Positions 3,560 through 18,820 of a stretch of 64,000 nt of DNA are shown here, in pieces. The DNA is taken from contig JAYVCD010000034.1 of NCBI GenBank assembly GCA_043750125.1, positions 561-64,560 on the forward strand. The letters run 5' to 3'. Numbering within the stretch: the first letter of the stretch is position 1; each line of letters opens with the position of its first letter. Below the pieces are notes generated by a model, which saw only the letters and a list, made by a program, of their open reading frames with translations, had not been told where the DNA came from and did not search any database. Both the position numbers and the translations under genes were made by a program. Origin of the DNA: Archangiaceae bacterium (lineage in GTDB: Bacteria > Myxococcota > Myxococcia > Myxococcales > Myxococcaceae).

Positions 3560-3607
3560 CCACCACATCTAGTGTCAAATTCTTTACCAAGCCCCTACAT
3601 TTAGGGG
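3560..3607 (-). promoter_or_regulatory. Tandem NrdR boxes in the nrdJ promoter region
   Basis: Read on the minus strand: cccctaaatgtagggg (3607-3592) and acactagatgtggtgg (3575-3560). They match the NrdR box consensus acaCwAtATaTwGtgt at 10/16 and 12/16 positions. Centres are 32 bp apart in an AT-richer stretch. The second box overlaps a TTGACA hexamer. Confidence 0.55.
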
Positions 3608-3907
3608 TTCGATGGCGTTTGGCGGTCAATCCAATCGACCTCCAGGGCCTCTAAATCGGCCCCAGCGGCGATCGGGATCACTGAGGCCTACATTGGCCTC
3701 GAGGGACCGATGGCGGGGGCGGAAAACGACAGTACATCGCCCTTCACGTACGGCAGCTTTGATCGGACCGTGTATTTGCTGAAAGTCCGTTAGAAAGGAT
3801 GATCAGTTTTACCAAGCAAGGCGATCAAATCGGGCCGATTTTCAGCCTCGGAACGCAGTTTTGCGATTTCCGCACCACCAGCAACGGCCCCCGAGTAGAG
3901 AAGCGCG

Positions 3908-4237
3908 ATGCCCCCGCCTTTTGAAAGACACGTCTTCATTTGTACCAACTTGCGCGAGCTGAACAACCCGAAGGGGAGCTGCTCAGCAAAGGGCTCGGAA
4001 GAGCTCCCGATGCTCTTCAAGAAGGAGCTCGAGGGCAAAGATGTTCCCGAGGGGAGCATTCGAATCAACAAAGCGGGCTGCCTCGACGCCTGCGAGCGTG
4101 GCTGCACCGTCGTCGTCTACCCCGAGGGCGTCTGGTACGGAGGGGTTACCAAGGGCGACGTGAAGCAGATCGTCGAAGAACACCTGGTGGGTGGAAAGCC
4201 GGTCGAACGGCTGAAGATGAAGCGCTACGAAAAGTAG
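3908..4237 (+). CDS. Thioredoxin-like [2Fe-2S] ferredoxin
   Basis: 109 aa. Motifs HVFICTN...GSCSAKG...AGCLDACERGC...VVVYPEGVWYG fit the four-Cys pattern of this small ferredoxin family. Confidence 0.7.
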   Translation: MPPPFERHVFICTNLRELNNPKGSCSAKGSEELPMLFKKELEGKDVPEGSIRINKAGCLDACERGCTVVVYPEGVWYGGVTKGDVKQIVEEHLVGGKPVERLKMKRYEK

Positions 4238-4269
4238 CTTTCGTCGCTCACACCTCGAAGCAAGACGCA

Positions 4270-4309
4270 CCCCTGGGACCGGCGTTCTGGGAACGCACAA
4301 TCCCAGGGG
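4270..4309. terminator. Hairpin between convergent genes (possible bidirectional terminator, no U-tract)
   Basis: cccctggga (4270-4278) pairs with tcccagggg (4301-4309). It lies between the ferredoxin stop (4237) and the BI-1 stop (4323). Confidence 0.3.
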
Positions 4310-4322
4310 AAATCGAATCGCT

Positions 4323-5030
4323 TTAGCGGCGGTTTCCCAGCAGGCGCAGCAGCATCAAGAACAGGTTGATGAAATCGAGATACAGAATCAGCGCCCCGGT
4401 GATGGCAGCCGAACCTTTGCTCTTGTGACCCATTTGGGCGTGGTGTTCGCGCAGCTTCTGGGTGTCGTAGGCGGTGAGGCCGGCGAAGACGAGGACTCCA
4501 GCGCAGGCGATGACGAATGACAGGCCGCTCGAGTGAAGAAACAGGTTCACCACCATCGCCAGAACCACGCCGATCAGCCCCATGAACAAGAACGTGGACC
4601 AGGTCGAGAGGTTCTTCTTCGTCACCGTGCCGTAGATCGACAGAGCGCCGAAGGCTCCTCCGGTGACGAGGAACGTGCTGCCGATCGACCCCAGGCTGTA
4701 GACCAGGAACAGCACCGAGAAGGTGAGTCCGGTCATAAAGGCGTAGCCGATGAACATCAGGCCCGCGACAGGCGCGCTGACTCTGGGGGCCAGAAACGAC
4801 AACCCGATCACCAGGGCCAACTCGCCCACCACCAGGGGCAAGTACAGCCCGAGCACCGCCTGCTGCAGTGAAGCGTTGCTGGCCACCGCGACGGCGGTGA
4901 TGCCGGTAATGGCCAGACCGGCCACCATCCACCGGTAGACCGCGCTCATGTACGTCCCAGCGGCTTCGTCCGTCAGGATCTGGGTGTTGCTGCGGATGCC
5001 GACTTCTGAACCAGGTGTTTGCCAGGCCAT
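4323..5030 (-). CDS. Bax inhibitor-1/YccA family membrane protein
   Basis: 235 aa and multi-pass hydrophobic. Has the characteristic C-terminal region TAYDTQKLRE...ALILYLDFINLFLMLLRLLG. Confidence 0.8.
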   Translation of the reverse strand: MAWQTPGSEVGIRSNTQILTDEAAGTYMSAVYRWMVAGLAITGITAVAVASNASLQQAVLGLYLPLVVGELALVIGLSFLAPRVSAPVAGLMFIGYAFMTGLTFSVLFLVYSLGSIGSTFLVTGGAFGALSIYGTVTKKNLSTWSTFLFMGLIGVVLAMVVNLFLHSSGLSFVIACAGVLVFAGLTAYDTQKLREHHAQMGHKSKGSAAITGALILYLDFINLFLMLLRLLGNRR

Positions 5031-5057
5031 GGGTGATCGTCCTTTTGAAGAGTGTCG

Positions 5058-6542
5058 CTAACGGCGAGAAGTAACGCCTGCACGGTAAGCATTGAGCAGC
5101 GAACCTGCCACCTCGTCGTTCAACAATGGAATGACCCCGCCTCCTCCCACGATATTGACGATGTGAGAAATGGAGCCCCGACAGACGCCGCCCCAGGCGG
5201 GCTGGGTCTCGAGCCCCACCGAGGCGTAGGACGAGAAGTCGACGTACAGCTCGGCAGGTTCCTGGGTGTTGCCTGAGCACAGCAGGTGCGGCTCGGGCCG
5301 GGTTTCGACCAGCTGCTGCACGACGAAGCCCCCGCCGACCCGATCTTCGGCCGCCCGGGGGCACAGCTCTTCCCAGGTCAGGGGGCGGCCATACGCCGCG
5401 CTCACCCGATCGTTGAAGGAATCCTCGTTGCGGGTTCGGCCCACGAAGACGGCGCGGCCGCCGTAGTCCCAGGATCTCTTCAGCACGTAGCGATCGGGCG
5501 CGGCGCTGACTTGTCGCACCAGCGCTTCGCCGCGAAACGGCCGCGTCCACGGAACCGATTGGGCGATCGCCTCGAGCTCTTCTTCGTTCAGGCCCGCGTC
5601 TCGGGCGAGGTCGGGCTCTTCGCCCGCCTGGGACAGCAGCGCAAAAGCGGTCTTCACCTCGACGTGAGAGGCCGGAGGGTTGAGCACCACCGCCCGTTTC
5701 CCATTCGGTTCCGCAAGCAGCGCCTGAACGTACGCGGCCCCACCCAGGCCGGCCTCTTCGAGGCGGCGCACGAACAGGTGGCGGTAGACCAGATCGTAGG
5801 CCTTGCCGTTCGCCTTCACGGCGTCGTCGCCGCTGAGCTGATCAGGGTAGACGAGGTCGGCGTCGGCCCCCCACTCGACGAAGCGCTCGCGCAGGTAGCC
5901 CAGCTCGGTGAGTTGGGCGTCGTTCCGCCTGCACAGCAACGCGATTGCGTTGGGCGTCTTTCCCGGCCGTACCCGGGCGTAGCCGGACAGCAGCGCGCGG
6001 TAGAGGGCGAGCGCGTTGCTGCCATTCTTCGCCATCAAGGTGGCAATCGCGTGGGGCTGCAAACCCCAGCTGCGGCCCGCAACCTCGATCAGCGTATGGG
6101 CCGCGATGTCCGAGTAGCCATGCATCGCGGGAATCGTCGCGTTGACTTCGAGTGCGCTGACCGTCTGGCCGACGAAGAAATCGACCCGGGTGGTCACCAG
6201 CGCGTCGGTCTTCGCCACGGTGGCTTCACACAGCTTTCGCTCGAGCGGCGAGAGGGCGCCCAGCACCAGCTCGCTGGCGCTGCCCAGGCAGATCGCGCGC
6301 GCCATCTTCAAGCAGGCCGAGCTCAGCAGCGCGGCCAGCCTTTGTCGTCGCTGAAGCTCTGCACGGGTCAGCACCACCGCCGTGGCGGTGATCGGAATCG
6401 GGCGGGTCTGGCCGTCGGCCTTGTCGGTGACCGCCAGTCCGCGCTCGTACGCAGTCCGGGCGAGCTCGGGGCCGAAGTGTCGGGCTCCCGACCGCAGCGC
6501 TTCTAAAAGAGCATCGGTGGGGGTAAGTCGCTCGGTCGCCAT
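5058..6542 (-). CDS. Hypothetical enzyme, possibly a glutathione-synthetase-like (circularly permuted ATP-grasp) ligase
   Basis: ORF 5058..6743(-). Start set to ATG 6542 (MATERLTPTD), with GAGG 9 nt upstream. Motifs LEVNATIPAMHGYS, VLKRSWDYGGRAVFVG and NIVGGGGVIPL recall the eukaryotic-type GSH synthetase fold. This is from memory of motifs only. Confidence 0.35.
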   Translation of the reverse strand: MATERLTPTDALLEALRSGARHFGPELARTAYERGLAVTDKADGQTRPIPITATAVVLTRAELQRRQRLAALLSSACLKMARAICLGSASELVLGALSPLERKLCEATVAKTDALVTTRVDFFVGQTVSALEVNATIPAMHGYSDIAAHTLIEVAGRSWGLQPHAIATLMAKNGSNALALYRALLSGYARVRPGKTPNAIALLCRRNDAQLTELGYLRERFVEWGADADLVYPDQLSGDDAVKANGKAYDLVYRHLFVRRLEEAGLGGAAYVQALLAEPNGKRAVVLNPPASHVEVKTAFALLSQAGEEPDLARDAGLNEEELEAIAQSVPWTRPFRGEALVRQVSAAPDRYVLKRSWDYGGRAVFVGRTRNEDSFNDRVSAAYGRPLTWEELCPRAAEDRVGGGFVVQQLVETRPEPHLLCSGNTQEPAELYVDFSSYASVGLETQPAWGGVCRGSISHIVNIVGGGGVIPLLNDEVAGSLLNAYRAGVTSRR

Positions 6543-7143
6543 GGGTAAGAGCCTCGAGTTCTTCTTCGATTTTATGAGTCCGTACGCGTTTCTCGCGTCC
6601 ACGCAGTTGCCGGCTCTTGCCGAACGGACGAACGCGACGCTGCGTTGGCGTCCTCTGTATTTGCCGGGCGTGTTGAAGGCCACAGGAAATGCGGGCCCGA
6701 CTTCGATTGCGGCCAAGGCGATGTACAACTTCAAGGATCTCAACGATTGGGCCCGGCACTACCAACTGCCTCCGATCGAGCTGCCTGATCATTTTCCATT
6801 CACCGCCGTGCTCGCCAACCGGGTGGCGTTGGTGGCCGACGAACAGGCGCGGGGTTCGCAATACGCGCTGAAGATGTTCTGGCGAATCTGGGCCGAGCGC
6901 GCCGACTGCAACGATCCGGCGATGGTGGCTGGAGTCCTTGGCCAGGTGGGGCTCGACCCGGAGGCGGTCATCGCCCGCGCCGGCAGCGATGAAATCAAGG
7001 CTCGGCTCAGGCTGAACAGCGAAGAGGCGGTGCAGCGCGGCGCGTTCGGTGTTCCTACGTTTTATGTGGGCGAAGAGATGTTCGTCGGCAACGACCGGCT
7101 TCTCTTCGTCGAACAGGCGCTGAAGCGTCAGGACGGGGCGTGA
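6541..7143 (+). CDS. 2-hydroxychromene-2-carboxylate isomerase / DsbA-like thioredoxin-fold protein
   Basis: Start ATG 6541 (MGKSLEFFFDFMSPYAFLAS). C-terminal GAFGVPTFYVGEEMFVGNDRL is typical of the HCCA isomerase family. Confidence 0.7.
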   Translation: MGKSLEFFFDFMSPYAFLASTQLPALAERTNATLRWRPLYLPGVLKATGNAGPTSIAAKAMYNFKDLNDWARHYQLPPIELPDHFPFTAVLANRVALVADEQARGSQYALKMFWRIWAERADCNDPAMVAGVLGQVGLDPEAVIARAGSDEIKARLRLNSEEAVQRGAFGVPTFYVGEEMFVGNDRLLFVEQALKRQDGA

Positions 7144-7688
7144 TGCAGCGGTTCAAACGCGAAGCCTCTGCACTGCTGGTGATCGACGTTCAGGAACGGC
7201 TGGCGGCGGCGATGAACCCCGACTCGCTGCAGAGGGCGCTCAACCGCACCGTCGCTGCGATCCTCGGGGCCAAAGCGTTGGGGATGCCGATTCTCGTCAC
7301 TGAGCAGTACCCCCGGGGGCTGGGCCCGACGATGAAGGCGGTGCAAGAAGCGATCGGCGAGGGGTTTCAACCGATCGAGAAAATCGAGTTCTCAGCCTGG
7401 CAACCCGGAATTCAAGCGCAGCTCTCCGCGCGCCCCAACGTGCTGGTCGTCGGAATGGAAACCCACGTCTGCGTCTTTCAGACCGTGCGGGACCTGGCGT
7501 CGGCGGGCCTGACCCCGTGGCTGGCGGCCGACGCCGTGCTCTCGCGCCAGGCCATCGATCACCAGACCGGCCTGGCGCTCAGCGCTCGGGCGGGCGCGAT
7601 CCTCACCACGGTCGAGACGGCGTTGTTCGACGCGCTGGTCAAGGCCTCGGGCCCTGAGTTCAAGGCCGTTTCGGCCGCGGTGAAGTAG
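7143..7688 (+). CDS. Isochorismatase-family hydrolase
   Basis: ALLVIDVQERL...VLVVGMETHVCVFQTVRDL is the cysteine hydrolase signature. The ATG overlaps the upstream TGA by 1 nt. Confidence 0.7.
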   Translation: MQRFKREASALLVIDVQERLAAAMNPDSLQRALNRTVAAILGAKALGMPILVTEQYPRGLGPTMKAVQEAIGEGFQPIEKIEFSAWQPGIQAQLSARPNVLVVGMETHVCVFQTVRDLASAGLTPWLAADAVLSRQAIDHQTGLALSARAGAILTTVETALFDALVKASGPEFKAVSAAVK

Positions 7689-7696
7689 GTGAGGGG

Positions 7697-8059
7697 TTGG
7701 CCAACAGCCGAGGGGACGGCGTGATCTGGGTGCTTGCCTCGAAGCAGCTTCTCGAAGGCGGTCGGACCGTCGTCGTCGCCCAGGGGCGCGAAATCGCGCT
7801 GGTGCGGGTCGAGGGTCAGGTCTTCGCGGTGGGCAACACCTGCCCCCATCGAGGGGGTGCCCTGGGGCTGGGCGATCTATCGGGCCACCACCTGTACTGC
7901 CCGCTTCACGCCTGGTGCTTCGATGTCAGGAACGGTGAAGGCTTTTTCCCGCCGGGGGCGCGCATTGCGACCCACGACGTGAAGGAAGTCGAAGGCGAAA
8001 TCTTCGTCGAGCCGGTGCCCCGTCCGCGGCCGATCGACTTCCTGCCTCCAACCGTTTAG
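7697..8059 (+). CDS. Rieske [2Fe-2S] domain protein (NirD-like small subunit)
   Basis: CPHRGGALGLGDLSGHHLYCPLH is the Rieske CxH...CxxH motif. The TTG at 7697 has no spacer after GAGGGG, so GTG 7721 (AGGGGA 5 nt upstream) is an equally likely start. Confidence 0.8.
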   Translation: MANSRGDGVIWVLASKQLLEGGRTVVVAQGREIALVRVEGQVFAVGNTCPHRGGALGLGDLSGHHLYCPLHAWCFDVRNGEGFFPPGARIATHDVKEVEGEIFVEPVPRPRPIDFLPPTV

Positions 8060-8099
8060 CGCTGCGGCAACGGGCCGGGGCTTACGTTAGGTTGCACCT

Positions 8100-8450
8100 A
8101 TGAAGATGCGCCTCAAAGTCGATTTCCACTTCAGTTCCGCCCATGCGCTGCCGTTCTACGAAGGAGTCTGCAAGCGGATGCATGGGCACAACTACCGGCT
8201 CCAGGTCACCGTCGAAGGCAAGCCCAACCCCAACGATGGAATGATTCGCGACTTCGAGGACATCAAGAAGCGGGTGTGGGACGCGGCGCTCACCCAGTGC
8301 GACCACCACTGTCTGAATGACCTGATTGAAAACCCGACCGCCGAGAACATGGGCACGTGGATCTGGGAAAAGTTGAAGCCCAACATCGAAGGGCTCCAGG
8401 CCATCACGCTTTGGGAAAATCCGGACTACTGCGTGACCGTCGAGGTCTGA
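8100..8450 (+). CDS. QueD / 6-pyruvoyl-tetrahydropterin synthase family protein (paralog 1)
   Basis: 116 aa. Contains FSSAHALPFYEGVCKRMHGHNY...DHHCLND...ENPTAENM, i.e. T-fold Zn-binding His residues plus the catalytic Cys. Confidence 0.8.
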   Translation: MKMRLKVDFHFSSAHALPFYEGVCKRMHGHNYRLQVTVEGKPNPNDGMIRDFEDIKKRVWDAALTQCDHHCLNDLIENPTAENMGTWIWEKLKPNIEGLQAITLWENPDYCVTVEV

Positions 8451-8466
8451 TTCGAACCGGGGTGGG

Positions 8467-8877
8467 TCAAGCCGCCGGGTTCTTTTTGACTGCCGGGTCG
8501 AACCCGACTTGTTCGGCGAGCGCTGCTTGAAGGGTCGATCGAAGCTCAGCATTCTCCCAGGGTTTGGTCATGAAGCGGTCGATTTCCCCTGCGGCGAGGG
8601 CTTCGGCGACCCGCTCGGGCATGAAGCCGGTGATGATGATTTTCACGCAGGGTCGAAACCGACGCTTGACCTCCCGCATCAGCTCGAGGCCGGTCATTCC
8701 AGGCATCAGGTGGTCAGAAATCACCGCGATGAAGTCGTGTTTCTCGAGTAATTCCAGGGCTTGCTGCCCACTGGCGGCGGTGAGGATTCGAAACCCGGTT
8801 GAGCGCAGGGTCCGTTCCAACGCACGGCGAACCAGCTCATCGTCATCAACGATCAAGATGTTCTGTCCGCTGTCCAT
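8467..8877 (-). CDS. Stand-alone response regulator receiver
   Basis: ILIVDDDELV...VISDHLMPGMTGLEL...IDRFMTKPWE is a CheY-like REC domain with no output domain. Confidence 0.85.
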   Translation of the reverse strand: MDSGQNILIVDDDELVRRALERTLRSTGFRILTAASGQQALELLEKHDFIAVISDHLMPGMTGLELMREVKRRFRPCVKIIITGFMPERVAEALAAGEIDRFMTKPWENAELRSTLQAALAEQVGFDPAVKKNPAA

Positions 8878-8920
8878 CTGGGTGAACAGATCAACTTTCG
8901 GACCAAACGCCTTTTACGGG

Positions 8921-8936
8921 CGGCTCCGCGATTGCT
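8921..8936 (+). promoter_or_regulatory. Candidate sigma54 (-24/-12) promoter upstream of the EBP gene
   Basis: cGGCTCCgcgaTTGCT fits TGGCAC-N5-TTGCW, with GG and GC exactly 10 nt apart. The GC lies 15 nt before ATG 8951, and no SD is visible. Confidence 0.3.
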
Positions 8937-8950
8937 TTACCGCAGCTCAC

Positions 8951-10417
<1,467 letters not shown>

Positions 10418-10440
10418 ACTCTCGCGGCTGGGTGGACTTC

Positions 10441-10745
10441 GCTGTCCAGCCGCAATGAAGTCTAAAGAGTCCTGTCGTCAGTACGAGGCGCCGACCGGGC
10501 GCACCGCGGTGTTCACCCGCAATGAAGTCCAAAGAGTCCTGTCGTCAGTACGAGGCGCCGACCGGGCGCACCGCGGTGTTCACCCGCAGTGAAGTCCAAA
10601 CAGTTCTCACGTCAGTACGAGGCGGCGACCGGGTGCACCGCGGTGTTCACCCGCAGTGACGTCCAAAGAGTCCTCCCGTCAGTATGAGGCGGCGACCCGG
10701 AGCACCGCGGTGTTCACCCGCAGTGAAGTCCAAAGAGTCCTGTCG
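10441..10745. repeat. 67-bp tandem repeat array: four full copies plus partial copies at both ends, non-coding
   Basis: Unit starts at 10457, 10524, 10591, 10658 and 10725, an exact period of 67. The core caccgcggtgttcacccgca is identical in all full copies. The array fills the gap between the convergent stops at 10417 and 10770. Confidence 0.9.
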
Positions 10746-10769
10746 AAGGCGGGGGGGCGGCTGCCCTTG

Positions 10770-12443
10770 TCAGCCGTCTTTGCGCAGCTTCACAGTGAAC
10801 GTCGAACCCTGGCCGAGCACCGAAGCGACTTCGATGTCACCGCCGGCGCGCCGAATGATGCCGTAGGCCGCGGTGAGCCCGAGCCCGATGCCCTTGCCGA
10901 CCCCTCGGGTGGTAAAAAACGGCTCGAAAATGCGCCTCAGATTTTCAGGCGAGATGCCCGTGCCTTCATCCTGGATCTCGATTCTGACCTCGGTGTCCGA
11001 TTGGCTGGTTCGCACCCGAACGGCTTGACCCGGTTTCACGGCCTGGTGCGCATTTTTCAAGATGTGGCCCAGCGCCTGATCCAGCTGAAGCGGAGCGATC
11101 TGCGCCAACGTCGTCGCGTCGAGTGTCACCACCGGTCTGCCGGCCTCCGGAAGCCGAGCCGCAAGCCGCGACACCGACGAATTGACGTTACTCGGCTCCG
11201 CACTCGAGACCTCGAGCCGAGAGAATTCTCTCAGCCCGGCAACGATTTCCTTTACCCGCCGCACTCCGTCCAGGGACTCGGCGACCATCTCCTGCCCGTC
11301 GGAAAGATCGGTCGCATTGGCCGTACCTGCAACGACTTCGCCGAGCAGACCCTTCAGTGATTGCAGGTTCGCATTCACGAAGCCGATCGGATTGTTGATC
11401 TCGTGCGCCGCGCCATCGGCGAGCTGACCCACCGCGATCAGCCGCTCACCTTCGCGGGCCTTCTCTTCGAGTTGTTTCTGAATCGTCACATCTCGGTACT
11501 GCACCACCACCGACGTGTCGGTCGCATCTTCATGAGCAAGCCAGAATCCCGAGAAGCGAAAGGTTGACCCGTGCGAGTCGATTTCAGCGGCCAGCTCGTG
11601 CGCCCCGCGGCCCTTGAGCAGGGGACAGGCGGGGCAGGGCGTCGGGCGGCCCGCGATCAGCTCGTGGCAGCGGCGGCCGGTCACCTGCGTGATGGGGACC
11701 CCGACGGCCCGCGACCAGGCAAGGTTCGCGCGGCGAATCACGAAGCCGTCTTGCACTGCGATCGGGTCGCTGATCGCATCGAACGTGCGTTCCCACTCGC
11801 GTTTGGCGCGGCTCAACATGTGGGTGCGCTGCTCGACCTTTTCTTCGAGGCCCGCATTGATCGCGATCAACTGGGTATGCGCCGCCCGAAGCCGTTCATC
11901 GACCTGCGCTTGACGCACGGCGATCACCACGTGGGGGGCCAGGTCGATCAGACGCTTGAGGTACCGTTCGTCGAACGGCTCTTCTGCCGCGCCGCGCACC
12001 GCTTCCAGCACGCCCAGGCATTGGCCCCGGTGGACGAGGGGAACCGCAATGATCGACCCGGCCGCAAAGCCACTGAGCTCGTCGACCGACGGCTCGAACT
12101 CGGGGCACGCACGGGCTTCCACCACCAGCACCGGCTCGCGCTCGCGGGCAACGCGCCCCGCGACTCCACGGCCCGCGGCGATCTTCACATGCTCGATTCG
12201 CCCCGCCCCTGGGCCTTCAACGCGATCGAAGGACAGCTCCATCGTGTCCCCGTCGAGCAGCAGCAGGCTGGCTCCGTCGGCATCGCAGAGTGCGCGGGTG
12301 TGTTCGATCGCCGTCGCGATCAGATCGCTGACTGAGCGCTGCGCCGCGATGGCTTGTGCGATTCGGTTGATGAGCTTTGCGCTCAGCGCACACTCGAGCA
12401 GGGCTGCCCTGTCGTCCGGCTCCCGATCGTCTTCGGTGATCAT
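10770..12443 (-). CDS. GAF-PAS sensor histidine kinase
   Basis: N-terminal GAF-like region, PAS domain, H-box AAHEINNPIGFV, and an HATPase with GTGISPENLRRIFEPFFTT...GIGLGL. Confidence 0.85.
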   Translation of the reverse strand: MITEDDREPDDRAALLECALSAKLINRIAQAIAAQRSVSDLIATAIEHTRALCDADGASLLLLDGDTMELSFDRVEGPGAGRIEHVKIAAGRGVAGRVAREREPVLVVEARACPEFEPSVDELSGFAAGSIIAVPLVHRGQCLGVLEAVRGAAEEPFDERYLKRLIDLAPHVVIAVRQAQVDERLRAAHTQLIAINAGLEEKVEQRTHMLSRAKREWERTFDAISDPIAVQDGFVIRRANLAWSRAVGVPITQVTGRRCHELIAGRPTPCPACPLLKGRGAHELAAEIDSHGSTFRFSGFWLAHEDATDTSVVVQYRDVTIQKQLEEKAREGERLIAVGQLADGAAHEINNPIGFVNANLQSLKGLLGEVVAGTANATDLSDGQEMVAESLDGVRRVKEIVAGLREFSRLEVSSAEPSNVNSSVSRLAARLPEAGRPVVTLDATTLAQIAPLQLDQALGHILKNAHQAVKPGQAVRVRTSQSDTEVRIEIQDEGTGISPENLRRIFEPFFTTRGVGKGIGLGLTAAYGIIRRAGGDIEVASVLGQGSTFTVKLRKDG

Positions 12444-12451
12444 CTCAAACC

Positions 12452-12988
12452 CTAGACCGAGGCGACCGCCATCGGGTCGTCATCGAGCAGAATCGCTCCT
12501 TCCGAGTTCCGGCGAAGGTCTCCAATGCCCGGATACTGGGTCTCGAGATCTTTGATCAGGTCGGCCTGGCGTCGAACGGTGGCCAGCAAACGGCGGTGCT
12601 CGCGCTCGAGATCCAGATGCTCGAAGGCAAGGTACAAGGTGACCTTCAGCTCGACGTCGTCCCACGGCTTGGTCAAGAACCGGTAGACCTGCCCGTCGTT
12701 GATTGCCCTGATCGCCGTGTCCATGTCGGCGTGACCGGTGAGCAGCACCCGCACGCTGTTCGGGTGGCGGTCCCGAACGATGCCCAGGAACTCGAGCCCG
12801 GTCATGTTGGGCATCATGTGATCGCTGAGCACGAGGTCGACCTTCTCGACCTTGAGGATCTCCAGCCCCTGGGCCGGCTCGTTGGCGACGAGAATGTCGT
12901 AGCCTTCCTTGCGCAGGCTGCGGCGCAGGGCGTTGCAGATGTTGATCTCGTCGTCGACTACAAGAATGCGGCGGGGGGCGGTGGTCAT
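12452..12988 (-). CDS. Response regulator (REC plus short C-terminal extension)
   Basis: RILVVDDEINI...VLSDHMMPNMTGLEF...VYRFLTKPWDDVEL. Confidence 0.85.
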   Translation of the reverse strand: MTTAPRRILVVDDEINICNALRRSLRKEGYDILVANEPAQGLEILKVEKVDLVLSDHMMPNMTGLEFLGIVRDRHPNSVRVLLTGHADMDTAIRAINDGQVYRFLTKPWDDVELKVTLYLAFEHLDLEREHRRLLATVRRQADLIKDLETQYPGIGDLRRNSEGAILLDDDPMAVASV

Positions 12989-13052
12989 GTTTCTCCTCGA
13001 AGGCGGACGAGGAGACGTTGAGCAACGTGTGTGCCGTCGCTTCAGCCTTGAT

Positions 13053-14240
13053 TCACCGGGGAATCGTGGGGGTCAACGGCGTCGGCGAGGTCAAAGCTGA
13101 CTCGTGCGCGGGGTGATCTTCCATTCGCGGAAAGACCAGCTCGAACGAGGCCCCCTGGCCTTCTTCGCTGCGCACCCGAATGCGCCCGTTGCTCTGGCAA
13201 ACGATGCCCCAGGCCGTCGCCAGCCCCAGCCCCACGCCCTTGCCCCGGGGCTTGGTGGTGAAGAACGGTTCGAACAAGTGCATACGGGTCCGGGCGTTCA
13301 TTCCCACCCCCGAGTCTTCGACACCCAGGCTCACCCACTTTCCCTCAGGCTCGAGATTCGAGGCCGACAGGTTCGAGGTGGAAAAGGTCAGCTGGCCACC
13401 CTGGGGCATCGCGTCCCGCGCATTGAGCGCGAGCTGCACCACGACGCGCTCGAGCTGCTGGGCGTCGGCGTGAATCGCCCCTACCTGAGGGTCGAGCTGG
13501 GTGATCACGCGAATCGACGGACCCAGCTGGCCCCGGACCTCGTCGAGCGCCGCCTTGACGATCTCGTTCACCGACACCGGCCCAGGCACCAACAGCTGAC
13601 GTCGACTGAAGGAAAGCAGCTGGCGGGTCAGATCGACGGCCCGTCGGCAGGCGAGACGAATCTCTTCCGTCATCGGCTGCGAAGGGTGGTCGGCGGCGAG
13701 CTCGTCGTGGATCAGCGCACCCGCTGACCCGATGATGCTCAGCAGGTTGTTGAAGTCGTGGGCCACTTGCCCGGCGAGTCGACCGATGGCGTCCATCTTC
13801 TGCGCCTGGAGCACCTGTTCATCGCGGGCCTGGAATGCACCCGGCGTCTGTCCGGTCTCGCTTTGGGTCGTCGCAACGCGCCAGTGGACCACCACCGACT
13901 TCACTTGAGGATCTTCGAGCAGGTTGCGACTTGCCGCCGCGATCCACTTCCAGCTTCCGTCGCGATGCTTCATCCGCAGGCAGCTGGACACCGCGACCCC
14001 GGGTGAAGACATCACCTGGACCCACAACCGCTGCGCTTCAGCAAGATGGTCGGGGTGAACTTCGGCGAAGGCTTTCGACGGGTGGGTCTGCCCGGGCTGT
14101 CCTCCTGCCAGCTGTCCGTCTTTGTCACTGGTGACTCTGACCACTGCATTTTCATCGAGAAGGCTGACCGCCTGGAAAGGGAGCTCGCTCAGCAAATCGG
14201 CGAAGCGCCCTGGGCTCACACATGGGTCCGTCGTTTCCAC
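13053..14240 (-). CDS. PAS sensor histidine kinase
   Basis: PAS-like N-terminus, H-box AGQVAHDFNNLLSII, and an HATPase with GVGMNARTRMHLFEPFFTTK...GVGLGLA. Confidence 0.85.
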   Translation of the reverse strand: METTDPCVSPGRFADLLSELPFQAVSLLDENAVVRVTSDKDGQLAGGQPGQTHPSKAFAEVHPDHLAEAQRLWVQVMSSPGVAVSSCLRMKHRDGSWKWIAAASRNLLEDPQVKSVVVHWRVATTQSETGQTPGAFQARDEQVLQAQKMDAIGRLAGQVAHDFNNLLSIIGSAGALIHDELAADHPSQPMTEEIRLACRRAVDLTRQLLSFSRRQLLVPGPVSVNEIVKAALDEVRGQLGPSIRVITQLDPQVGAIHADAQQLERVVVQLALNARDAMPQGGQLTFSTSNLSASNLEPEGKWVSLGVEDSGVGMNARTRMHLFEPFFTTKPRGKGVGLGLATAWGIVCQSNGRIRVRSEEGQGASFELVFPRMEDHPAHESALTSPTPLTPTIPR

Positions 14241-14268
14241 CGCGCCAATCTACGCCCGGGGGGCGAAA

Positions 14269-14742
14269 TTATTGGAGCAGGAAAGTCTGCGTGGCGCGGG
14301 AAACCTGCTCGGCGTCCAGGAACACGCGAACCGACCAGGTCCCGGTCATCGAGAACTGCTGAATCCAGGTTCCCGCGACCGGCATCGAAGTCCAGACCCG
14401 ATAGTGGGTCGAGGTTCCGGTGCTGAACGGCACTTCGGTGCGCTGGAAGACGGTTCCGCCCGGCGAGGTGATTTCGAAGGCGGCCAGGTGCTGTCCAGCC
14501 AGCGCGACCGGAAGATCGAAGGCCATGAACAGGTCGTAGGTGGTCGCGATGACGAAGCTGGTCTTGAAGATGGGGTTGGTCGAGGTCGCGCTGACCTGCA
14601 CCTGCCAAACCGCCGCCGCAGGGCGCGCGGCCTTCAACTCGGCCTGGCTCGTCGCCGAAAGATCTTCTGCGGCCGGGACCATCGGGCTGCCGCAGGCAAC
14701 CAGAGTCAGGGAAACGAGAGCAGCGAGCAGTGTGTTGTTCAT
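14269..14742 (-). CDS. Lipoprotein of unknown function
   Basis: ORF 14269..14760. ATG 14742 gives MNNTLLAALVSLTLVACG (lipobox LVAC). It is the first gene of the minus-strand HK-RR-HK string. Confidence 0.6.
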   Translation of the reverse strand: MNNTLLAALVSLTLVACGSPMVPAAEDLSATSQAELKAARPAAAVWQVQVSATSTNPIFKTSFVIATTYDLFMAFDLPVALAGQHLAAFEITSPGGTVFQRTEVPFSTGTSTHYRVWTSMPVAGTWIQQFSMTGTWSVRVFLDAEQVSRATQTFLLQ

Positions 14743-14755
14743 GCTGGAGACGTTT

Positions 14756-14771
14756 TGCAAACCTGCTGCCG
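14756..14771 (-). promoter_or_regulatory. Candidate sigma54 (-24/-12) promoter for the lipoprotein-HK-RR-HK operon
   Basis: The minus strand reads cGGCAGCaggtTTGCA, against the consensus TGGCAC-N5-TTGCA. GG-N10-GC spacing is correct. The GC lies 14 nt before ATG 14742. Confidence 0.4.
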
Positions 14772-14882: not shown

Positions 14883-15233
14883 ATGGACATGTTGCTCTCG
14901 GTCGATTTTCACTTCTGCGCCGCACACCACCTGCCGTTCTACGACGGGCCGTGCAAGCGCCTTCACGGTCACAACTACCAACTGCGCGTCACGTTGACCG
15001 GTCGCCCTTCACCCAAAGACGGAATGATTCGCGACTTCGACGAGATCAAGCGCACCGTTACCGAGTTGGTGTTGATCGAGTGCGACCACCACAACCTCAA
15101 CGACCTGATGGAAAACCCGACCGCCGAGAACATGGTGGTGTGGATGTGGGACCGCCTCGAGAAGCACATCGACGGGTTGCGCGAGCTTCAGCTTTGGGAA
15201 ACCCCCGAGTACTGCGTCACCTACCGGAAGTGA
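14883..15233 (+). CDS. QueD / 6-pyruvoyl-tetrahydropterin synthase family protein (paralog 2)
   Basis: MDMLLSVDFHFCAAHHLPFYDGPCKRLHGHNY...DHHNLND...ENPTAENM. A hand alignment with the 8100..8450 product gives 70/116 identical residues. Confidence 0.8.
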   Translation: MDMLLSVDFHFCAAHHLPFYDGPCKRLHGHNYQLRVTLTGRPSPKDGMIRDFDEIKRTVTELVLIECDHHNLNDLMENPTAENMVVWMWDRLEKHIDGLRELQLWETPEYCVTYRK

Positions 15234-15244
15234 ATCGCCCCGCG

Positions 15245-15802
15245 ATGCGGCGTGCGGTGAAGGACTTTCTGACCGCCGCGGGGCTGAACCTGTCGGACCC
15301 CAACCTGGCCCAGACTCCGAGCCGGGTCGCCGACGCGTGGGCGGACGAATTTCTCGATGGGTACGGACGGTCGGCGGCCGAAGTTCTGGGCGAGCGCTTT
15401 CCGGTCTCGAAGGCCTCCCAGCGTGAGCTGGTCGTGGTGACCGGCCTCCACTTCCGTTCGATGTGCCCGCACCACCTGTTGCCCTACTCCGGCCGCGCGA
15501 CGGTCGCCTACCTGCCGGGAAAAACAGTCGTCGGGTTCGGCAGACTCGCTTCGCTGGTCGACCTCTTCGCCCACCGGTTGATCCTTCAAGAAGAGCTGGC
15601 CCGCCAGGTCGCGGTCGCCTTGAAAGTCCACCTGCGCTCTCCGGCCACCGCCTGCGTGCTCGAAGCCGAGCAGACCTGCCTGCGCCTGCGCGGAGGCCAC
15701 CAGCACGACGCGGTGACTCACGCCGAGGCGTACGAAGGAAAATTGAGCCGCGACTCCGCGCTTCGGCGCGAGCTGTGGGCCCGGATAGGAAAAAAGAAAT
15801 GA
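15245..15802 (+). CDS. folE: GTP cyclohydrolase I-like protein (divergent FolE)
   Basis: 185 aa. Contains PNLAQTPSRVADAW, SMCPHHLLPYSGRATVAYLPGKTVVGFGRLA and QTCLRLRG, which align to FolE Zn-site segments. CPHH replaces the canonical CEHH. Confidence 0.65.
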   Translation: MRRAVKDFLTAAGLNLSDPNLAQTPSRVADAWADEFLDGYGRSAAEVLGERFPVSKASQRELVVVTGLHFRSMCPHHLLPYSGRATVAYLPGKTVVGFGRLASLVDLFAHRLILQEELARQVAVALKVHLRSPATACVLEAEQTCLRLRGGHQHDAVTHAEAYEGKLSRDSALRRELWARIGKKK

Positions 15803-16518
15803 AGACCCGCCGCAAACCTTTTCTCCAGCCGTACCCCCCGACCATCGCGCTGGTGACGGGCGCTTCCCGAGGCATCGGAGCGGCGATCGCCCGCGCCCTG
15901 GCAGGCCTGGGGCTCGACTTGATTTTGACCTCGACCCGGAAGGGAGGCACCCGGGGGACCGCCGAAGAGTGCCGGGGTCACGGAATTGAAGTGCTCGAGT
16001 TGGCGCACGACGCGGGCTCGCGCGCAGACGCAGATCGCGTCGTGGCCGCTGCGATCAAACGGTTTGGTCAGGTCGACATCCTGATCAACAACGCGGGCCA
16101 GGTCATTCGCAAGCCGGTGGTGAAGATGTCCGACGACGACTTCGATGACGTGCTGCGCACGAACCTCAGCGGCCCGTTCTACCTGACCCGCCGACTGCTG
16201 CCCGGAATGGTGAAGCGGGGGCTGGGCAGAATCATCAACATCTCGTCGATTTCGGCCACGCTCGGCTCTGAGAACCACACCGGCTATTGCGCTTCGAAAT
16301 GGGGGCTGGACGGCTTCACCAAGGCCCTGGCCGAAGAGACGCGCGGCACCGGAGTGCTGGTCTGCTCGGTGTTGCCCGGAAGCGTGGACACCCAGATGCT
16401 CAAAGGCTCGGGTTTTCCTCCGATGATGGGCGCGTGGGAAGTCGCTGACGTCGTCCGCTACCTGGCCTTCGAAGCGCCGCTGGCCCTGCACGGCGGCCGG
16501 GTGGAAGTCTTCGGGTGA
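15799..16518 (+). CDS. Short-chain dehydrogenase/reductase (classical SDR)
   Basis: The ATG overlaps the folE stop (ATGA). Contains TGASRGIGAAIA, NNAG and the S...YCASK catalytic motif. Confidence 0.8.
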   Translation: MKTRRKPFLQPYPPTIALVTGASRGIGAAIARALAGLGLDLILTSTRKGGTRGTAEECRGHGIEVLELAHDAGSRADADRVVAAAIKRFGQVDILINNAGQVIRKPVVKMSDDDFDDVLRTNLSGPFYLTRRLLPGMVKRGLGRIINISSISATLGSENHTGYCASKWGLDGFTKALAEETRGTGVLVCSVLPGSVDTQMLKGSGFPPMMGAWEVADVVRYLAFEAPLALHGGRVEVFG

Positions 16519-17915
16519 AGCGACCTGAGGCTGAAGCGGTGGCCGCAGTCCGGGCCGAGCTGGAAGCCGCGCTGGGGGCCGCGCAGGTCAGCGCTGACCC
16601 CGACAAGCTGCTGGTCTACGGGCACGACGAGTCGGACATGGGGGACTTCGCGCCCCAGCTGATCGTCTTTGCGCGAAGCACCGCCGACGTGCAGCAGGTC
16701 TTTGCCACCGCGTTCGCCCACCGCGTGCCGGTGACGCCGGTGGCCGCGCGCAGCGGAAAATCGGGCGGCTCATTGCCCTTGTACGGCGGGGTGTCGCTGA
16801 GCCTCGAGCGGATGAACAAGATCTTGAGCATCAACCCCGAAGATCTGACCGCGGTGGTCGAGCCCGGGGTCATCACCGGCACGCTGATGAAGGCGGCCGA
16901 TGACGTGGGCCTCTTCTACCCCCCCGACCCGAACAGCTGGGAATTCTGTTCCCTCGGCGGCAACGTCGCCGAGAACGCCGGAGGCCCCCGTGCACTCAAA
17001 TACGGCGTCACCCGCGACTACGTGCTCGCAATGGAATGGGTTCTTCCGACCGGCGAGGCGCTGAACATCGGCAAGCGCACCATCAAAGGGGTGGCGGGCT
17101 ACGACTTGTGCGGCCTGTTCGTGGGCTCGGAAGGGACGCTGGGGGTGGCAACGCAGATCACGCTCCAGCTGATCCCCCGGCCCCGCAAGGTGAGAACGGC
17201 ACTGGTGATCTTCAAAGACGTTCTCGATGCGGCGCGGGCAGTCAGCGCGGTGCTGGCGGCTGGGCTGCTGCCCCGATGCCTCGAGCTGCTCGACGATGTG
17301 AGCATTCGGGCCATTGACGGTCGCGGGTTCTCATTTCCGCCGGGCTCGGGCGCCGCGGTCATCGCCGAGGTCGACGGGAATCACGACGAAGGGCTGCTGC
17401 TGGAGCTCGAGCAACTGTCCGAAATCGCCACTGCCCACGGAGCCCTCGATACGCTCCTGGCGCAGGACGAAGCCCAGCGGGAAAAACTGTGGGCCGCCCG
17501 CCGGGTGGTCTCGACGGCGTTGCGGGCATTAAAGCCCTTCAAGATTTCCGAAGACATCGCGGTGCCGCGCTCGAAGATCCCCGAGGCGATCGCGCGGTTC
17601 AAAGAGCTCGGCGCCCAGCTCGGGCTCACGGTCGCGACCTACGGTCATGCGGGCGATGGAAACCTTCACGCCAACATCCTCTTCGATGGGCCCCACCAGC
17701 GTCCGAAGGTCGACCAGGCGCTGGCGCAGATGATGCGCATCACCCTCGAGCTGGGAGGTACCATTACCGGCGAGCACGGGGTGGGCTTTGCCAAGCGGGC
17801 CTTCATTGCTCTCGAGCAGGGAAAGGCGCTGATCGACTTTCAAAAGCGGCTGAAGGCCTTTATCGACCCATTAGGGTTGCTAAATCCCGGGAAAATATTC
17901 GAGGAAGAGCCCTAA
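16515..17915 (+). CDS. FAD-linked oxidase (GlcD / D-lactate dehydrogenase family)
   Basis: GTGA overlap with the SDR stop. Has an FAD_binding_4-type N-terminal half (VTPVAARSGKSGGS) and the C-terminal GTITGEHGVGFAKR. Confidence 0.8.
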   Translation: MKRPEAEAVAAVRAELEAALGAAQVSADPDKLLVYGHDESDMGDFAPQLIVFARSTADVQQVFATAFAHRVPVTPVAARSGKSGGSLPLYGGVSLSLERMNKILSINPEDLTAVVEPGVITGTLMKAADDVGLFYPPDPNSWEFCSLGGNVAENAGGPRALKYGVTRDYVLAMEWVLPTGEALNIGKRTIKGVAGYDLCGLFVGSEGTLGVATQITLQLIPRPRKVRTALVIFKDVLDAARAVSAVLAAGLLPRCLELLDDVSIRAIDGRGFSFPPGSGAAVIAEVDGNHDEGLLLELEQLSEIATAHGALDTLLAQDEAQREKLWAARRVVSTALRALKPFKISEDIAVPRSKIPEAIARFKELGAQLGLTVATYGHAGDGNLHANILFDGPHQRPKVDQALAQMMRITLELGGTITGEHGVGFAKRAFIALEQGKALIDFQKRLKAFIDPLGLLNPGKIFEEEP

Positions 17916-18046: not shown

Positions 18047-18820
18047 ATGGCTTTCAGCGCAGCCCGTCGCAACTCATCCGAAGGCATCTCGCACTACCTG
18101 CGAAGCTTCGGCGGTCACAAACAACTTACGCGCGAGCAGGAATATTCGCTCAGCAAACGCGCGCACGCTGGCGATGAGGAAGCTCGTCGAATTCTGGCCG
18201 TCAGCAACCTTCCCTTCGTTGTCGCGGTGGCTCGTAAGTTCGCCAGCCGAGGCGCGCGGCTCGATGATCTCGTTCAGGAAGGCAACGTCGGCCTGATGAA
18301 GGCGATCGAGCACTTCGACTCGAAAAAGAACGTGCGCTTTGCCACCTATGCCGTCTGGTGGATCCGCGCGTACATCACCCGGTATTTGAAGGACAACCGC
18401 AGCCAGGTCCGGGGCGGCGAGTCCGAGCGGGCGAGCATGAGCGACTTTTCGCTCGACACGCCGATCGAAGAGGATGGCGATTCGACCTGGCTCGACCGCC
18501 TCGAGTCGAGCGACGAGGCTCCGGACACGACCTACACCCGACACGAGCGAGACGCCGAAGTGAGCGATGCGCTCGAGAAGGTGAAGAAGCGCCTGGGCGA
18601 TCTCGGCTGGGACATTCTTCAGGAACGCCTGACTCAGGACAAGCCGCGGACGCTCGAAGAGCTCGGGCAGCGGTGGGGCGTTTCCCGCGAGCGGGTCCGT
18701 CAGGTCGAGCTGAAGACCAAGAATTTCCTCGCCCGGTACCTCGAGCCCATCAACCAGGATTACGAGGTCGATGGCGACGACGAAAACGAGAATGACAACG
18801 ATTCGTCGGTAGCGGCGTAA
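18047..18820 (+). CDS. Sigma-70 family sigma factor (group 3 / RpoH-like)
   Basis: ATG 18047 with GAGAGAGGAA upstream. Region 2 reads DLVQEGNVGLMKAIEHFD...FATYAVWWIRAYI. Region 4 HTH reads LEELGQRWGVSRERVRQVE. The tail is acidic. Confidence 0.8.
   Translation: MAFSAARRNSSEGISHYLRSFGGHKQLTREQEYSLSKRAHAGDEEARRILAVSNLPFVVAVARKFASRGARLDDLVQEGNVGLMKAIEHFDSKKNVRFATYAVWWIRAYITRYLKDNRSQVRGGESERASMSDFSLDTPIEEDGDSTWLDRLESSDEAPDTTYTRHERDAEVSDALEKVKKRLGDLGWDILQERLTQDKPRTLEELGQRWGVSRERVRQVELKTKNFLARYLEPINQDYEVDGDDENENDNDSSVAA

Follow-up and report, generated by a model that had tools for sequence, protein, structure and literature searches.

Organization of the locus

The analyzed DNA, a stretch of 64,000 nucleotides from a Myxococcota MAG (hereafter the window; the source genome is denoted G000), contains four tightly packed genes on the forward strand. 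The first of these encodes QueD2, a 6-carboxy-tetrahydropterin synthase (PTPS-I) of 116 aa (14883..15233; PF01242, TIGR03367), and is followed after 11 nt by the ATG start codon, at 15245, of the gene for FolE, a GTP cyclohydrolase I of 185 aa (15245..15802; PF01227, NF006825). The third gene codes for a classical SDR of 239 aa (15799..16518; adh_short, E 5e-53) and the fourth for a GlcD-like FAD-linked oxidase or dehydrogenase of 466 aa (16515..17915; PF01565 and PF02913). The folE stop codon and the SDR start codon share the sequence ATGA (15799-15802), the SDR stop codon and the GTG start codon of the GlcD-like gene share GTGA (16515-16518), and the stop codon of the GlcD-like gene occupies positions 17913-17915. 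These ORFs and junctions exactly match those described in a previous, sequence-only reading of the same DNA, and the family assignments made there hold as well (PF01242, PF01227, adh_short, and FAD_binding_4 with FAD-oxidase_C). Downstream, after a spacer of 132 nt with an RBS-like GAGAGG before the start codon, lies a gene for an RpoH-like sigma-70 family factor (18048..18820, forward strand; Sigma70_r2, r1_2 and r4 domains). Upstream, on the same strand, are the genes for a small Rieske [2Fe-2S] protein (7697..8059; PF00355) and for QueD1, a PTPS paralog with the motif CKRMHGH (8100..8450).

The sequence-only reading placed queC, folB, folK and folP outside the window, in agreement with genome-wide searches of G000, where QueC of the preQ0 pathway was found on contig C415, FolK on C201, and FolP on C426 and C412. 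No riboswitch or other known RNA was detected at E <= 1 between positions 7000 and 19000, and sigma-70 promoter and terminator scans of the locus were uninformative. No RNA datasets containing the stretch are listed, the only runs that contain it being DNA from sediment metagenomes.

The order QueD-FolE-SDR-GlcD recurs well beyond chance: it is present in 22 loci in a set of 41 genomes (G000 and 40 relatives), in 7 of the 9 sampled families, and a scan across all GTDB species found it in 19 of 80 loci. The four genes are thus co-conserved in relatives, and the lack of conservation that the sequence-only reading had named as grounds for rejecting its proposal is not observed.

QueD2 and FolE

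QueD2 matches PF01242 (E 1.4e-34), scores 98.3 against the TIGR03367 QueD equivalog, above the cut-off of 89.25, and carries the motif CKRLHGH, which fits the PTPS-I (QueD) signature CxxxHGH (PMC5041015). In the tree, it belongs to clade A as the sister to the sole QueD of a relative, G008; this protein, to which QueD2 is 77% identical, is the only PTPS of a genome that has QueC, and where relatives have QueC, their single PTPS gene is the positional ortholog of QueD2. The suggestion that QueD2 is a T-fold enzyme outside the queuosine pathway is not supported by the motif, the TIGR03367 score and the identity to the G008 protein, and the phylogenetic placement that the sequence-only reading had proposed as a check groups it, by sequence, with bona fide QueD. 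Assignment to PTPS-II (CxxxxxHGH) is ruled out by the three-residue motif spacing, which is the same in QueD1, and by the tree. Assignment to PTPS-III, for which the motif rule is ExxHGH or CExxHGH (PMC5041015), is likewise ruled out by motif and tree: a Lys follows the Cys in both QueD1 and QueD2, and the Glu of the PTPS-III motif is absent from every FolE-adjacent QueD surveyed. No PTPS beyond these two was found in G000. QueD1, encoded downstream of the Rieske ferredoxin gene, is a recent paralog of QueD2 (62% identity), and in the same-genus genome G001 the two genes directly abut (126-470 and 556-903 of locus L005). In relatives belonging to four families, a Rieske ortholog immediately precedes the QueD gene next to FolE, with tblastn matches of 39-63% identity beside QueD at ten loci.

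FolE matches PF01227 with E 6e-47 (159.7 bits); its score is above the cut-off of NF006825 (176.3 vs. 174) and below that of TIGR00063 (128.7 vs. 181.6). The zinc motif is a CPHH variant of the canonical C-E-H-H, shared by 100 of the 101 FolE matches of the fetched loci, a count in which some genomes are represented more than once. The same variant is present in sole-copy FolEs of genomes with FolK, FolP and QueC, so that the CPHH form is probably functional. It cannot be taken as a sign of altered FolE function linked to the SDR given that SDR-less genomes carry it too. In G000, this FolE is the single PF01227 match and FolE2 (PF02649) gave no match; it is also the sole GTP cyclohydrolase I in G008, G012, G017, G091 and the Sorangium genome G176. 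Being the only GTP cyclohydrolase I of the genome, FolE is a housekeeping enzyme, not a dedicated second copy, and the idea that it belongs to a specialized pathway has to be abandoned.

The GlcD-like oxidase and the sigma factor

The GlcD-like protein has the domain pair PF01565 and PF02913 in common with GlcD, D-lactate and D-2-hydroxyacid dehydrogenases (VAO-type FAD enzymes), and the PDB entries that match it best are glycolate oxidase (9qgz), LctD (7qh2) and D-LDH (8jdc). It does not qualify as the glycolate oxidase subunit GlcD: the TIGR00387 score is 394.7, below the cut-off of 567.9, and, unlike in the case of GlcD, the gene has no adjoining GlcE or GlcF, its neighbors being the SDR and the sigma factor. 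A GlcD-like gene downstream of FolE is also found in G008 and G029, both of which lack the SDR, and no such gene adjoins the FolE-SDR pair in Polyangia; these observations argue against the oxidase as an SDR-specific partner or an extra step of a pathway, as had been proposed. The sigma-factor gene is a conserved downstream neighbor as well (also in G008, G012 and locus L034) and, like the GlcD-like gene, trails FolE even in SDR-less relatives. Both genes are conserved neighbors without a specific tie to the SDR.

The SDR and its pairing with FolE

The SDR contains the motifs TGASRGIG and NNAG and the tetrad Asn122-Ser150-Tyr163-Lys167 (ortholog alignments A1 and A2); the Gly of TGASRGIG is invariant across alignments of 23 and 31 orthologs. 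The AF2 model (pLDDT 91.8) has a FabG-like fold, and both sequence and fold searches rank FabG, 3-hydroxybutyrate dehydrogenase and hydroxyacyl-CoA dehydrogenase highest. The top 60 PDB sequence matches and the top 50 fold matches contain no pterin reductase, sepiapterin reductase included. Judging by these features, the SDR belongs with the classical FabG-like ketoreductases and is not of the FolM/PTR1 type: in FolM and PTR1, TGX3RXG replaces TGX3GXG (PMC1971073), whereas the SDR has the Gly, and FolM and PTR1 are missing from its PDB ranking. Membership in the FolM or sepiapterin reductase families, with whose routes the sequence-only reading had compared the operon, is accordingly not supported; for the latter, the tetrad is present but sepiapterin reductase is not among the best matches and PTPS-II is lacking. 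The fold also differs from that of FolA dihydrofolate reductase, and the score against the TmpR model NF012208 is 128 bits, below the cut-off of 325 and no better than for FabG models, which excludes TmpR membership. The SDR represents a distinct orthogroup, orthologs scoring 264 bits or more against the profile and paralogs no more than 217 bits; at E <= 1e-30, it has over 1500 matches among database proteins. Public annotation is generic ('FabG', 'SDR family oxidoreductase'), and the nearest Protein Atlas clusters are labeled 'YciK family', a family for which we know of no function.

In 64 of the 73 loci with enough upstream sequence, the gene immediately preceding the SDR encodes FolE. These loci span Myxococcia, Polyangia and Bradymonadia, with Myxococcaceae, Anaeromyxobacter, Polyangiaceae, Sorangium and Labilithrix among the carriers, and include one Vicinamibacteria contig. 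The flanks of the pair are wholly different by group, with QueD and GlcD in one and DUF2203 and a Lon-N-domain gene in the other. The Polyangia loci keep the pair without an adjacent PTPS and without an adjacent GlcD-like gene. A phylum-level profile search with the Polyangia alignment returned orthologs in Myxococcia only, the phylum group searched evidently excluding the class of Sorangium in the database used. We found no paper on a FolE-SDR pair in Myxococcota. The four-gene cluster is real and conserved, yet composite, and its specific, phylum-wide unit is the FolE-SDR pair alone. Since the link between the SDR and GTP cyclohydrolase I extends well outside G000, a pterin-related role, as anticipated in the sequence-only reading, appears to be the most likely one.

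Distribution of folate enzymes

G000 encodes FolK, FolP and ThyX, and genome-wide searches detected no FolA, FolB, ThyA or PTPS-III; tblastn with lineage-specific queries yielded nothing further for FolB and PTPS-III, and PF00186 (FolA) had no match in G000 and four same-genus genomes. The cluster carriers G000, G004, G017 and G091 all possess FolP, FolK, QueC and ThyX but lack FolA, FolB and ThyA. In G008, which is devoid of the SDR, FolA adjoins ThyA, and FolB is present. Among the 41 Myxococcia genomes, 25 carry the SDR; FolB was found in 3 and FolA in 2 of these 25, compared to 14 and 10, respectively, of the 16 SDR-less genomes, and both enzymes are absent in 20 of the 25 SDR carriers. 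The SDR/FolB contrast is repeated within families f1, f4 and f5 and between f3 and other families. In a further sample, restricted to genomes with a completeness of at least 90%, FolA was present in 1-2 of 27 SDR-bearing and 35 of 38 SDR-less genomes. The G008 locus has the order FolM-type SDR, FolB, x, QueD, FolE, GlcD, sigma, which implies that the swap took place within one pterin locus.

The presence of the SDR is thus complementary to that of FolB and FolA in Myxococcia but not in Polyangia, where FolA is found in 9 and FolB in 18 of the 20 SDR-bearing genomes, and FolA is absent in 29 of the 41 SDR-less genomes too. Other observations also count against a connection to the folate branch. 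The genomes compared are related and hence not independent, and the profile searches scored only 19-48 SDR candidates in each genome. The absence of FolA follows the switch from ThyA to ThyX, a known lineage pattern, and in G012 the SDR is retained beside GlcD, apart from FolE. In families f5-f8, PTPS paralogs with CExxHGH or HExxHGH already account for the missing FolB; the SDR carriers of family f1 have no such paralog, so that there the gap left by FolB is not explained by a PTPS-III bypass. Furthermore, homologs of the FolM-type SDR of G008 are present in 40 of the 41 genomes searched, including G000, whose paralog P0128 reads TGAGQRLG, in line with TGxxxRxG, and gives matches to Brucella FolM and PTR1. 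This paralog could already provide DHFR activity.

Possible roles of the SDR

According to the sequence-only reading, the four genes would constitute a pathway dedicated to making a reduced, unconjugated pterin of the BH4 or tetrahydromonapterin kind, with QueD2 acting as a PTPS, the SDR as an analog of sepiapterin reductase and the FAD oxidase catalyzing a further step. The locus does resemble the BH4 route (GTP cyclohydrolase I, PTPS-II, sepiapterin reductase) in that FolE, a T-fold enzyme and a Ser-Tyr-Lys SDR with the carbonyl-reductase tetrad adjoin, and G000 encodes a PhhA-type hydroxylase (contig C88; PF00351, E 1.3e-77). The proposed survey of co-occurrence with pterin-dependent hydroxylases gave a divided answer: strong PhhA matches are somewhat more common with the SDR (9 of 25 genomes, vs. 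2 of 16 without it), but the other 16 SDR carriers, including the same-genus G002, G003 and G004, have none, so that cofactor supply to an aromatic hydroxylase cannot be the general role of the SDR. Moreover, the T-fold enzyme has CxxxHGH, not the CxxxxxHGH of the BH4 route, and its ortholog in relatives is their only QueD; in Polyangia, FolE and the SDR occur without an adjoining PTPS; and GlcD adjacency is independent of the SDR. The similarity to the FolX/FolM tetrahydromonapterin route, as to FolM (DHFR1) and PTR1, consists in the clustering of an SDR gene with folE, but no FolX/FolB homolog was found in G000, and FolM-type reductases, the known bacterial route to tetrahydropterins, are already represented in the genome by the true FolM-type paralog encoded elsewhere. 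With a QueD of the PTPS-I type, a housekeeping FolE and a non-specific GlcD neighbor, a four-gene pathway of this kind is weakly supported, and we consider it unlikely.

Another explanation, which we regard as possible though on the doubtful side, is that the SDR and the GlcD-like protein are ordinary keto-acid, hydroxy-acid or acyl-carrier oxidoreductases that ride in a housekeeping operon and have no pterin substrate, the complementarity with FolA and FolB reflecting nothing more than shared ancestry. This would fit the top sequence and fold matches of the SDR, its generic annotation, the G012 arrangement, the lack of complementarity in Polyangia and, as weak evidence, the lack of fusions with pterin enzymes among longer proteins. 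It is harder to reconcile with the persistence of the FolE-SDR pair through the change of every other neighbor across classes, the overlap of the FolE stop and SDR start codons, the distinctness of the orthogroup and the repetition of the SDR/FolB contrast in several families.

From gene content, synteny, presence-absence patterns and family membership, we infer, tentatively and at less than even confidence, that the SDR is a FolE-coupled, probably NADPH-dependent reductase of the pterin or folate branch within a composite housekeeping pterin locus. All GTP-derived pterins and deazapurines of the cell would start from the dihydroneopterin triphosphate made by FolE, QueD2 would channel this compound into the preQ0/queuosine pathway, and the lineage-specific SDR, apparently translationally coupled to FolE, would have as its substrate a folate-branch pterin derived from the FolE product. 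It might reduce the pterin ring, converting dihydrofolate or a dihydropterin to the tetrahydro form, or, as the Asn-Ser-Tyr-Lys carbonyl-reductase tetrad suggests, the side chain, converting a 6-acyl or 6-formyl group to the alcohol. With either activity, it would close a gap in a folate pathway with FolE, FolK, FolP and ThyX but without FolA, FolB or PTPS-III. There are precedents for SDR-type dihydrofolate or pterin reductases, namely FolM and PTR1, and by analogy the SDR could plausibly reduce a FolE-derived pterin and serve as a back-up or substitute DHFR (PMC1971073), even if it has TGxxxGxG in place of TGX3RXG. A further precedent is the TmpR reductase (NCBIfam NF012208), a short SDR like the one described here and presumably that of Thermus thermophilus, which has been proposed to replace FolA in a FolA-less organism.

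A more elaborate version, which seems to us a long shot, is a bypass in which internal redox and side-chain cleavage of dihydroneopterin triphosphate would fall to the QueD-type T-fold enzyme, and the FolE-coupled SDR would convert the resulting 6-formyl or 6-acyl tetrahydropterin to 6-hydroxymethyl-tetrahydropterin, making both dihydroneopterin aldolase and dihydrofolate reductase dispensable. If correct, it would account for the joint absence of FolA and FolB in most SDR-bearing Myxococcia. FolB-less genomes and extra PTPS paralogs are also features of the PTPS-III (PTPS-I-III) bypass of dihydroneopterin aldolase, from which G000 differs by the absence of the Glu from QueD1 and QueD2.

Implications

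How dihydrofolate is reduced in ThyX-using bacteria without FolA is a stated open problem of comparative folate genomics (PMC1971073), and a related gap is the synthesis of 6-hydroxymethyl-dihydropterin in some FolB-less bacteria. One unannotated SDR orthogroup that is tied to the sole folE across Myxococcota offers a single, cloneable candidate for this pathway hole. Should the SDR turn out to be an unrelated ketoreductase, the result would be an ordinary one; should it prove to be a new DHFR or a reductase of pterin side chains, folate metabolism would gain a new enzyme family, and the 'FabG' and 'SDR family oxidoreductase' annotations of the orthogroup would be corrected.

Gene Order and the Conserved FolE-SDR Pair

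The four genes predicted in the sequence-only reading, together with their junctions, are present exactly as described once the ORFs and overlaps are re-read. All lie on the forward strand: QueD2 (14883-15233); FolE (15245-15802, ATG start at 15245) after an 11-nt gap; a classical short-chain reductase (hereinafter SDR; 15799-16518) that starts within an ATGA overlap with the FolE end; and a GlcD-like FAD oxidase (16515-17915) that starts within a GTGA overlap with the SDR end. A sigma-70 family gene (start at 18048, +) follows after a 132-nt spacer. The four families were confirmed with Pfam and NCBIfam models: QueD2 (98.3 bits against the QueD equivalog cut-off of 89.25) and FolE (176.3 bits against the FolE subfamily cut-off of 174) pass the NCBIfam thresholds, the oxidase scores under the GlcD cut-off, and the SDR matches generic FabG-like NCBIfam models alone, each under its cut-off. 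No riboswitch was found in a search around the cluster, and searches for RNA data on the window and for literature on the FolE-SDR pair also gave nothing.

With the SDR as query, the order QueD-FolE-SDR-GlcD was detected in 22 loci from 7 of the 9 families sampled among Myxococcia relatives (41 genomes, namely G000, the window's own assembly, and 40 relatives), so that the four genes are indeed co-conserved. A wider scan, in which each GTDB species was represented by one genome and an alignment of 23 SDR orthologs served as query, yielded 80 loci; among named records, MAGs of Myxococcales, Archangiaceae and Myxococcaceae came closest to the window. Where the upstream sequence was long enough (73 loci), FolE directly precedes the SDR in 64, with a median of about 60 nt separating the aligned ends. 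All four genes occur in 19 loci (Myxococcaceae, Anaeromyxobacter or unclassified Myxococcales and delta-proteobacterial names) and the pair alone in 44, mostly Polyangiaceae, Sorangium, Labilithrix, Byssovorax or Polyangia records but including one Bradymonadia MAG and one Vicinamibacteria contig. Given that pair-type loci have other flanking genes (a DUF2203 gene upstream; downstream, a Lon-N-domain gene, in some loci together with a Rieske gene), FolE-SDR is the conserved core of the cluster. No fusions of the SDR to pterin enzymes were found among longer proteins. In the relative G012, a rearrangement beside a DUF559 gene has broken the pair: QueD-QueD-FolE stands at 1.94 Mb, away from SDR-GlcD-sigma, which SAM methyltransferase and DUF559 endonuclease-like genes precede there (locus L121, G012:C1:9026000-9035707, 4912-9634).

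The other genes of the cluster

The oxidase had been proposed as an additional pathway step, which its distribution does not support. The locus of the relative G008 reads FolM-type SDR, FolB, a gene x, QueD, FolE, GlcD-like, sigma, and that of G029 reads QueD, FolE, GlcD-like, both lacking the FolE-adjacent SDR; the oxidase and the sigma factor therefore neighbor FolE in Myxococcia regardless of the SDR. Neither adjoins the FolE-SDR pair in Polyangia loci, and the GlcD-like oxidase has no specific tie to the SDR.

FolE is the sole PF01227 gene in G000 (6.17 Mb in 460 contigs, 89% complete), where a genome search found no FolE2, and it is likewise single, without FolE2, in G008, G012, G017, G091 and the Sorangium genome G176; as the only GTP cyclohydrolase I gene, it is the housekeeping enzyme. 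Its zinc motif is CPHH (15464-15475), a variant shared by 100 of the 101 FolE matches in the fetched Myxococcota loci and found also in genomes without the SDR; the canonical CEHH occurs in G023 only, adjoining a canonical FolB.

All surveyed FolE-adjacent QueDs carry C-x3-HGH; the residue after the Cys is K, F, N, S, R or Q but never Glu, and by the published motif rule (PTPS-I, CxxxHGH; PTPS-II, CxxxxxHGH; PTPS-III, ExxHGH; PMC5041015) they, QueD2 included, are PTPS-I. In a maximum-likelihood tree, QueD2 belongs to a well-supported clade of FolE-adjacent QueDs, as sister to the sole PTPS of G008, a QueC-bearing genome. In sequence terms, placement among the PTPS subfamilies goes against a dedicated non-queuosine enzyme, and QueD2 is read as a housekeeping gene. 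The second paralog, QueD1 (8100-8450, +), is 62% identical to QueD2 and is a recent duplicate within the family. In the same-genus relative G001 (locus L005, G001:C702, 126-903), QueD1 abuts QueD2 with a gap of 85 nt, whereas the two stand 6-7 kb apart in G000 and G004, so that the intervening sigma-54/two-component island (8467-14760) appears to have been inserted into a Rieske-QueD1-QueD2-FolE-SDR-GlcD locus. In loci L011, L019, L020, L025, L027, L044, L095, L098, L117 and L128 of relatives (families f1, f2, f5 and f7), the FolE-adjacent QueD is immediately preceded by a homolog (39-63% identical) of the small Rieske [2Fe-2S] gene at 7697-8059, and 8 Polyangia loci have a more distant Rieske gene after FolE-SDR-LonN.

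Folate genes in genomes with and without the SDR

FolP, FolK, QueC and ThyX are present in the cluster-bearing genomes G000, G004, G017 and G091, in which FolA, FolB and ThyA were not found; when lineage-specific FolB and PTPS-III sequences were run by tblastn against the complete G000 assembly, they matched the two window QueDs only. In G008, which lacks the SDR, FolA adjoins ThyA, FolB is present and ThyX is absent. ThyX appears to consist of two tandem Thy1 domains in one frame (about 560-620 aa) in G000 (C73:214-1590), G004 (C6) and G017 (C4), and of a single domain in G091.

Among the 41 Myxococcia genomes, which are related rather than independent, FolB was found in 3 of the 25 with the SDR vs 14 of the 16 without, and FolA in 2 of 25 vs 10 of 16. 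Twenty SDR-bearing genomes lack both genes, 2 have FolA only and 3 FolB only; among those without the SDR, 9 have both, 5 FolB only, 1 a weak FolA match only and 1 neither. The FolB contrast recurs inside families f1, f4 and f5, and again when f3 is set against the other families. In a second sample (genomes at least 90% complete), FolA is present in 1-2 of 27 SDR-bearing genomes vs 35 of 38 others. The profile searches scored part of each genome's SDR candidates. In Sorangium's class this complementarity is absent (FolA in 9 of 20 genomes with the SDR vs 12 of 41 without; FolB in 18 of the 20). The absence of FolA tracks the ThyA/ThyX switch.

In families f5-f8, second PTPS copies carry CExxHGH, or HExxHGH in G028 (loci L125-L131 of G036, G030, G037, G040, G029, G031 and G028, respectively). 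These signatures mark PTPS-I/III or PTPS-III enzymes, which stand in for FolB, so that the missing FolB is already explained. The f1 genomes, G000 included, have no Glu-motif PTPS copy, and their FolB gap accordingly stays unexplained. FolB and a Glu-motif PTPS are both missing in G000-G004, G006, G007, G009, G012, G017, G019, G020 and G024, as well as in the FolA-bearing f1 genome G018. Hence these Myxococcaceae are missing dihydroneopterin aldolase without a known substitute, FolK and FolP being confirmed, among f1 genomes without FolB, in G000, G004 and G017 only.

A homolog of the FolM-type SDR of G008 is encoded in G000 and nearly all relatives; the G000 copy (motif TGAGQRLG) has Brucella FolM and PTR1 among its PDB matches and could be the DHFR substitute. 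In relatives without the FolE-adjacent SDR, a FolM-type SDR (TGGGIRVG) adjoins a 249-aa FolB whose C-terminal extension is cupin-like by eye and has no Pfam match (L119, G008:C1:1876000-1890000, 3560-5045; G005:C470:2444-4384), with a Biopterin_H-like gene directly upstream in G005; this arrangement is reminiscent of a FolX/FolM-style tetrahydropterin module. Yet another classical SDR type, the third (TGGGTGIG or TGGGSGIG), is located beside the extended FolB in L132 and L134 (G013 and G011, both without FolA and the FolE-adjacent SDR) and in L133 (the FolA-bearing G021). At least three different SDR types are thus found in pterin loci of the class.

Possible roles of the SDR

The SDR forms a clean orthogroup (orthologs at least 264 bits, paralogs at most 217 bits in a profile search) with generic names in public records. 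The TGASRGIG and NNAG motifs and the tetrad Asn122-Ser150-Tyr163-Lys167 are invariant across orthologs, and the C-terminal signature PGSVDTxML ... EAPxAMxGSxVExFG is conserved; NADP(H) is the probable cofactor, judging from basic residues within the glycine motif and behind strand 2. Assignment to the FolM/PTR1 type was rejected since TGX3RXG is missing. The top 60 PDB sequence matches and, for a confident structural model (pLDDT 91.8), the top 50 fold matches consist of FabG, 3-hydroxybutyrate dehydrogenase and other ketoreductases, with no pterin reductase among them. The SDR is therefore a member of no known pterin-reductase family.

A ketoreductase unrelated to pterins would suit these matches, and we consider this less likely than not, though second among the readings. 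Two genes that stay paired across classes, with every other neighbor changing, are usually linked in function, and because FolE-SDR persists in this manner, the likeliest reading is that the SDR acts on a pterin. This much of the proposed pterin pathway stands; the dedicated four-gene route resembling tetrahydrobiopterin (BH4) synthesis is unsupported, given the housekeeping nature of QueD2 and FolE and the lack of a specific tie between oxidase and SDR, and a BH4-type cofactor route appears improbable. A PhhA-type gene is present in G000, and strong PhhA matches, a mark of pterin-dependent hydroxylases, occur in only 9 of the 25 SDR-bearing Myxococcia genomes and 1 of 4 same-genus relatives, so a cofactor role cannot explain the SDR distribution. 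Simple replacement of FolA or FolB by the SDR is weakened by the Polyangia pattern, the PTPS copies, the FolM-type paralog, the ThyX switch, G012 and the kinship of the genomes. Other SDR roles take up the remaining probability. Our tentative preference is that the SDR, by reducing either the ring or, as the tetrad would favor, a side-chain carbonyl, may serve as a FolE-coupled reductase of the folate/pterin branch that helps ThyX genomes lacking FolA and FolB.
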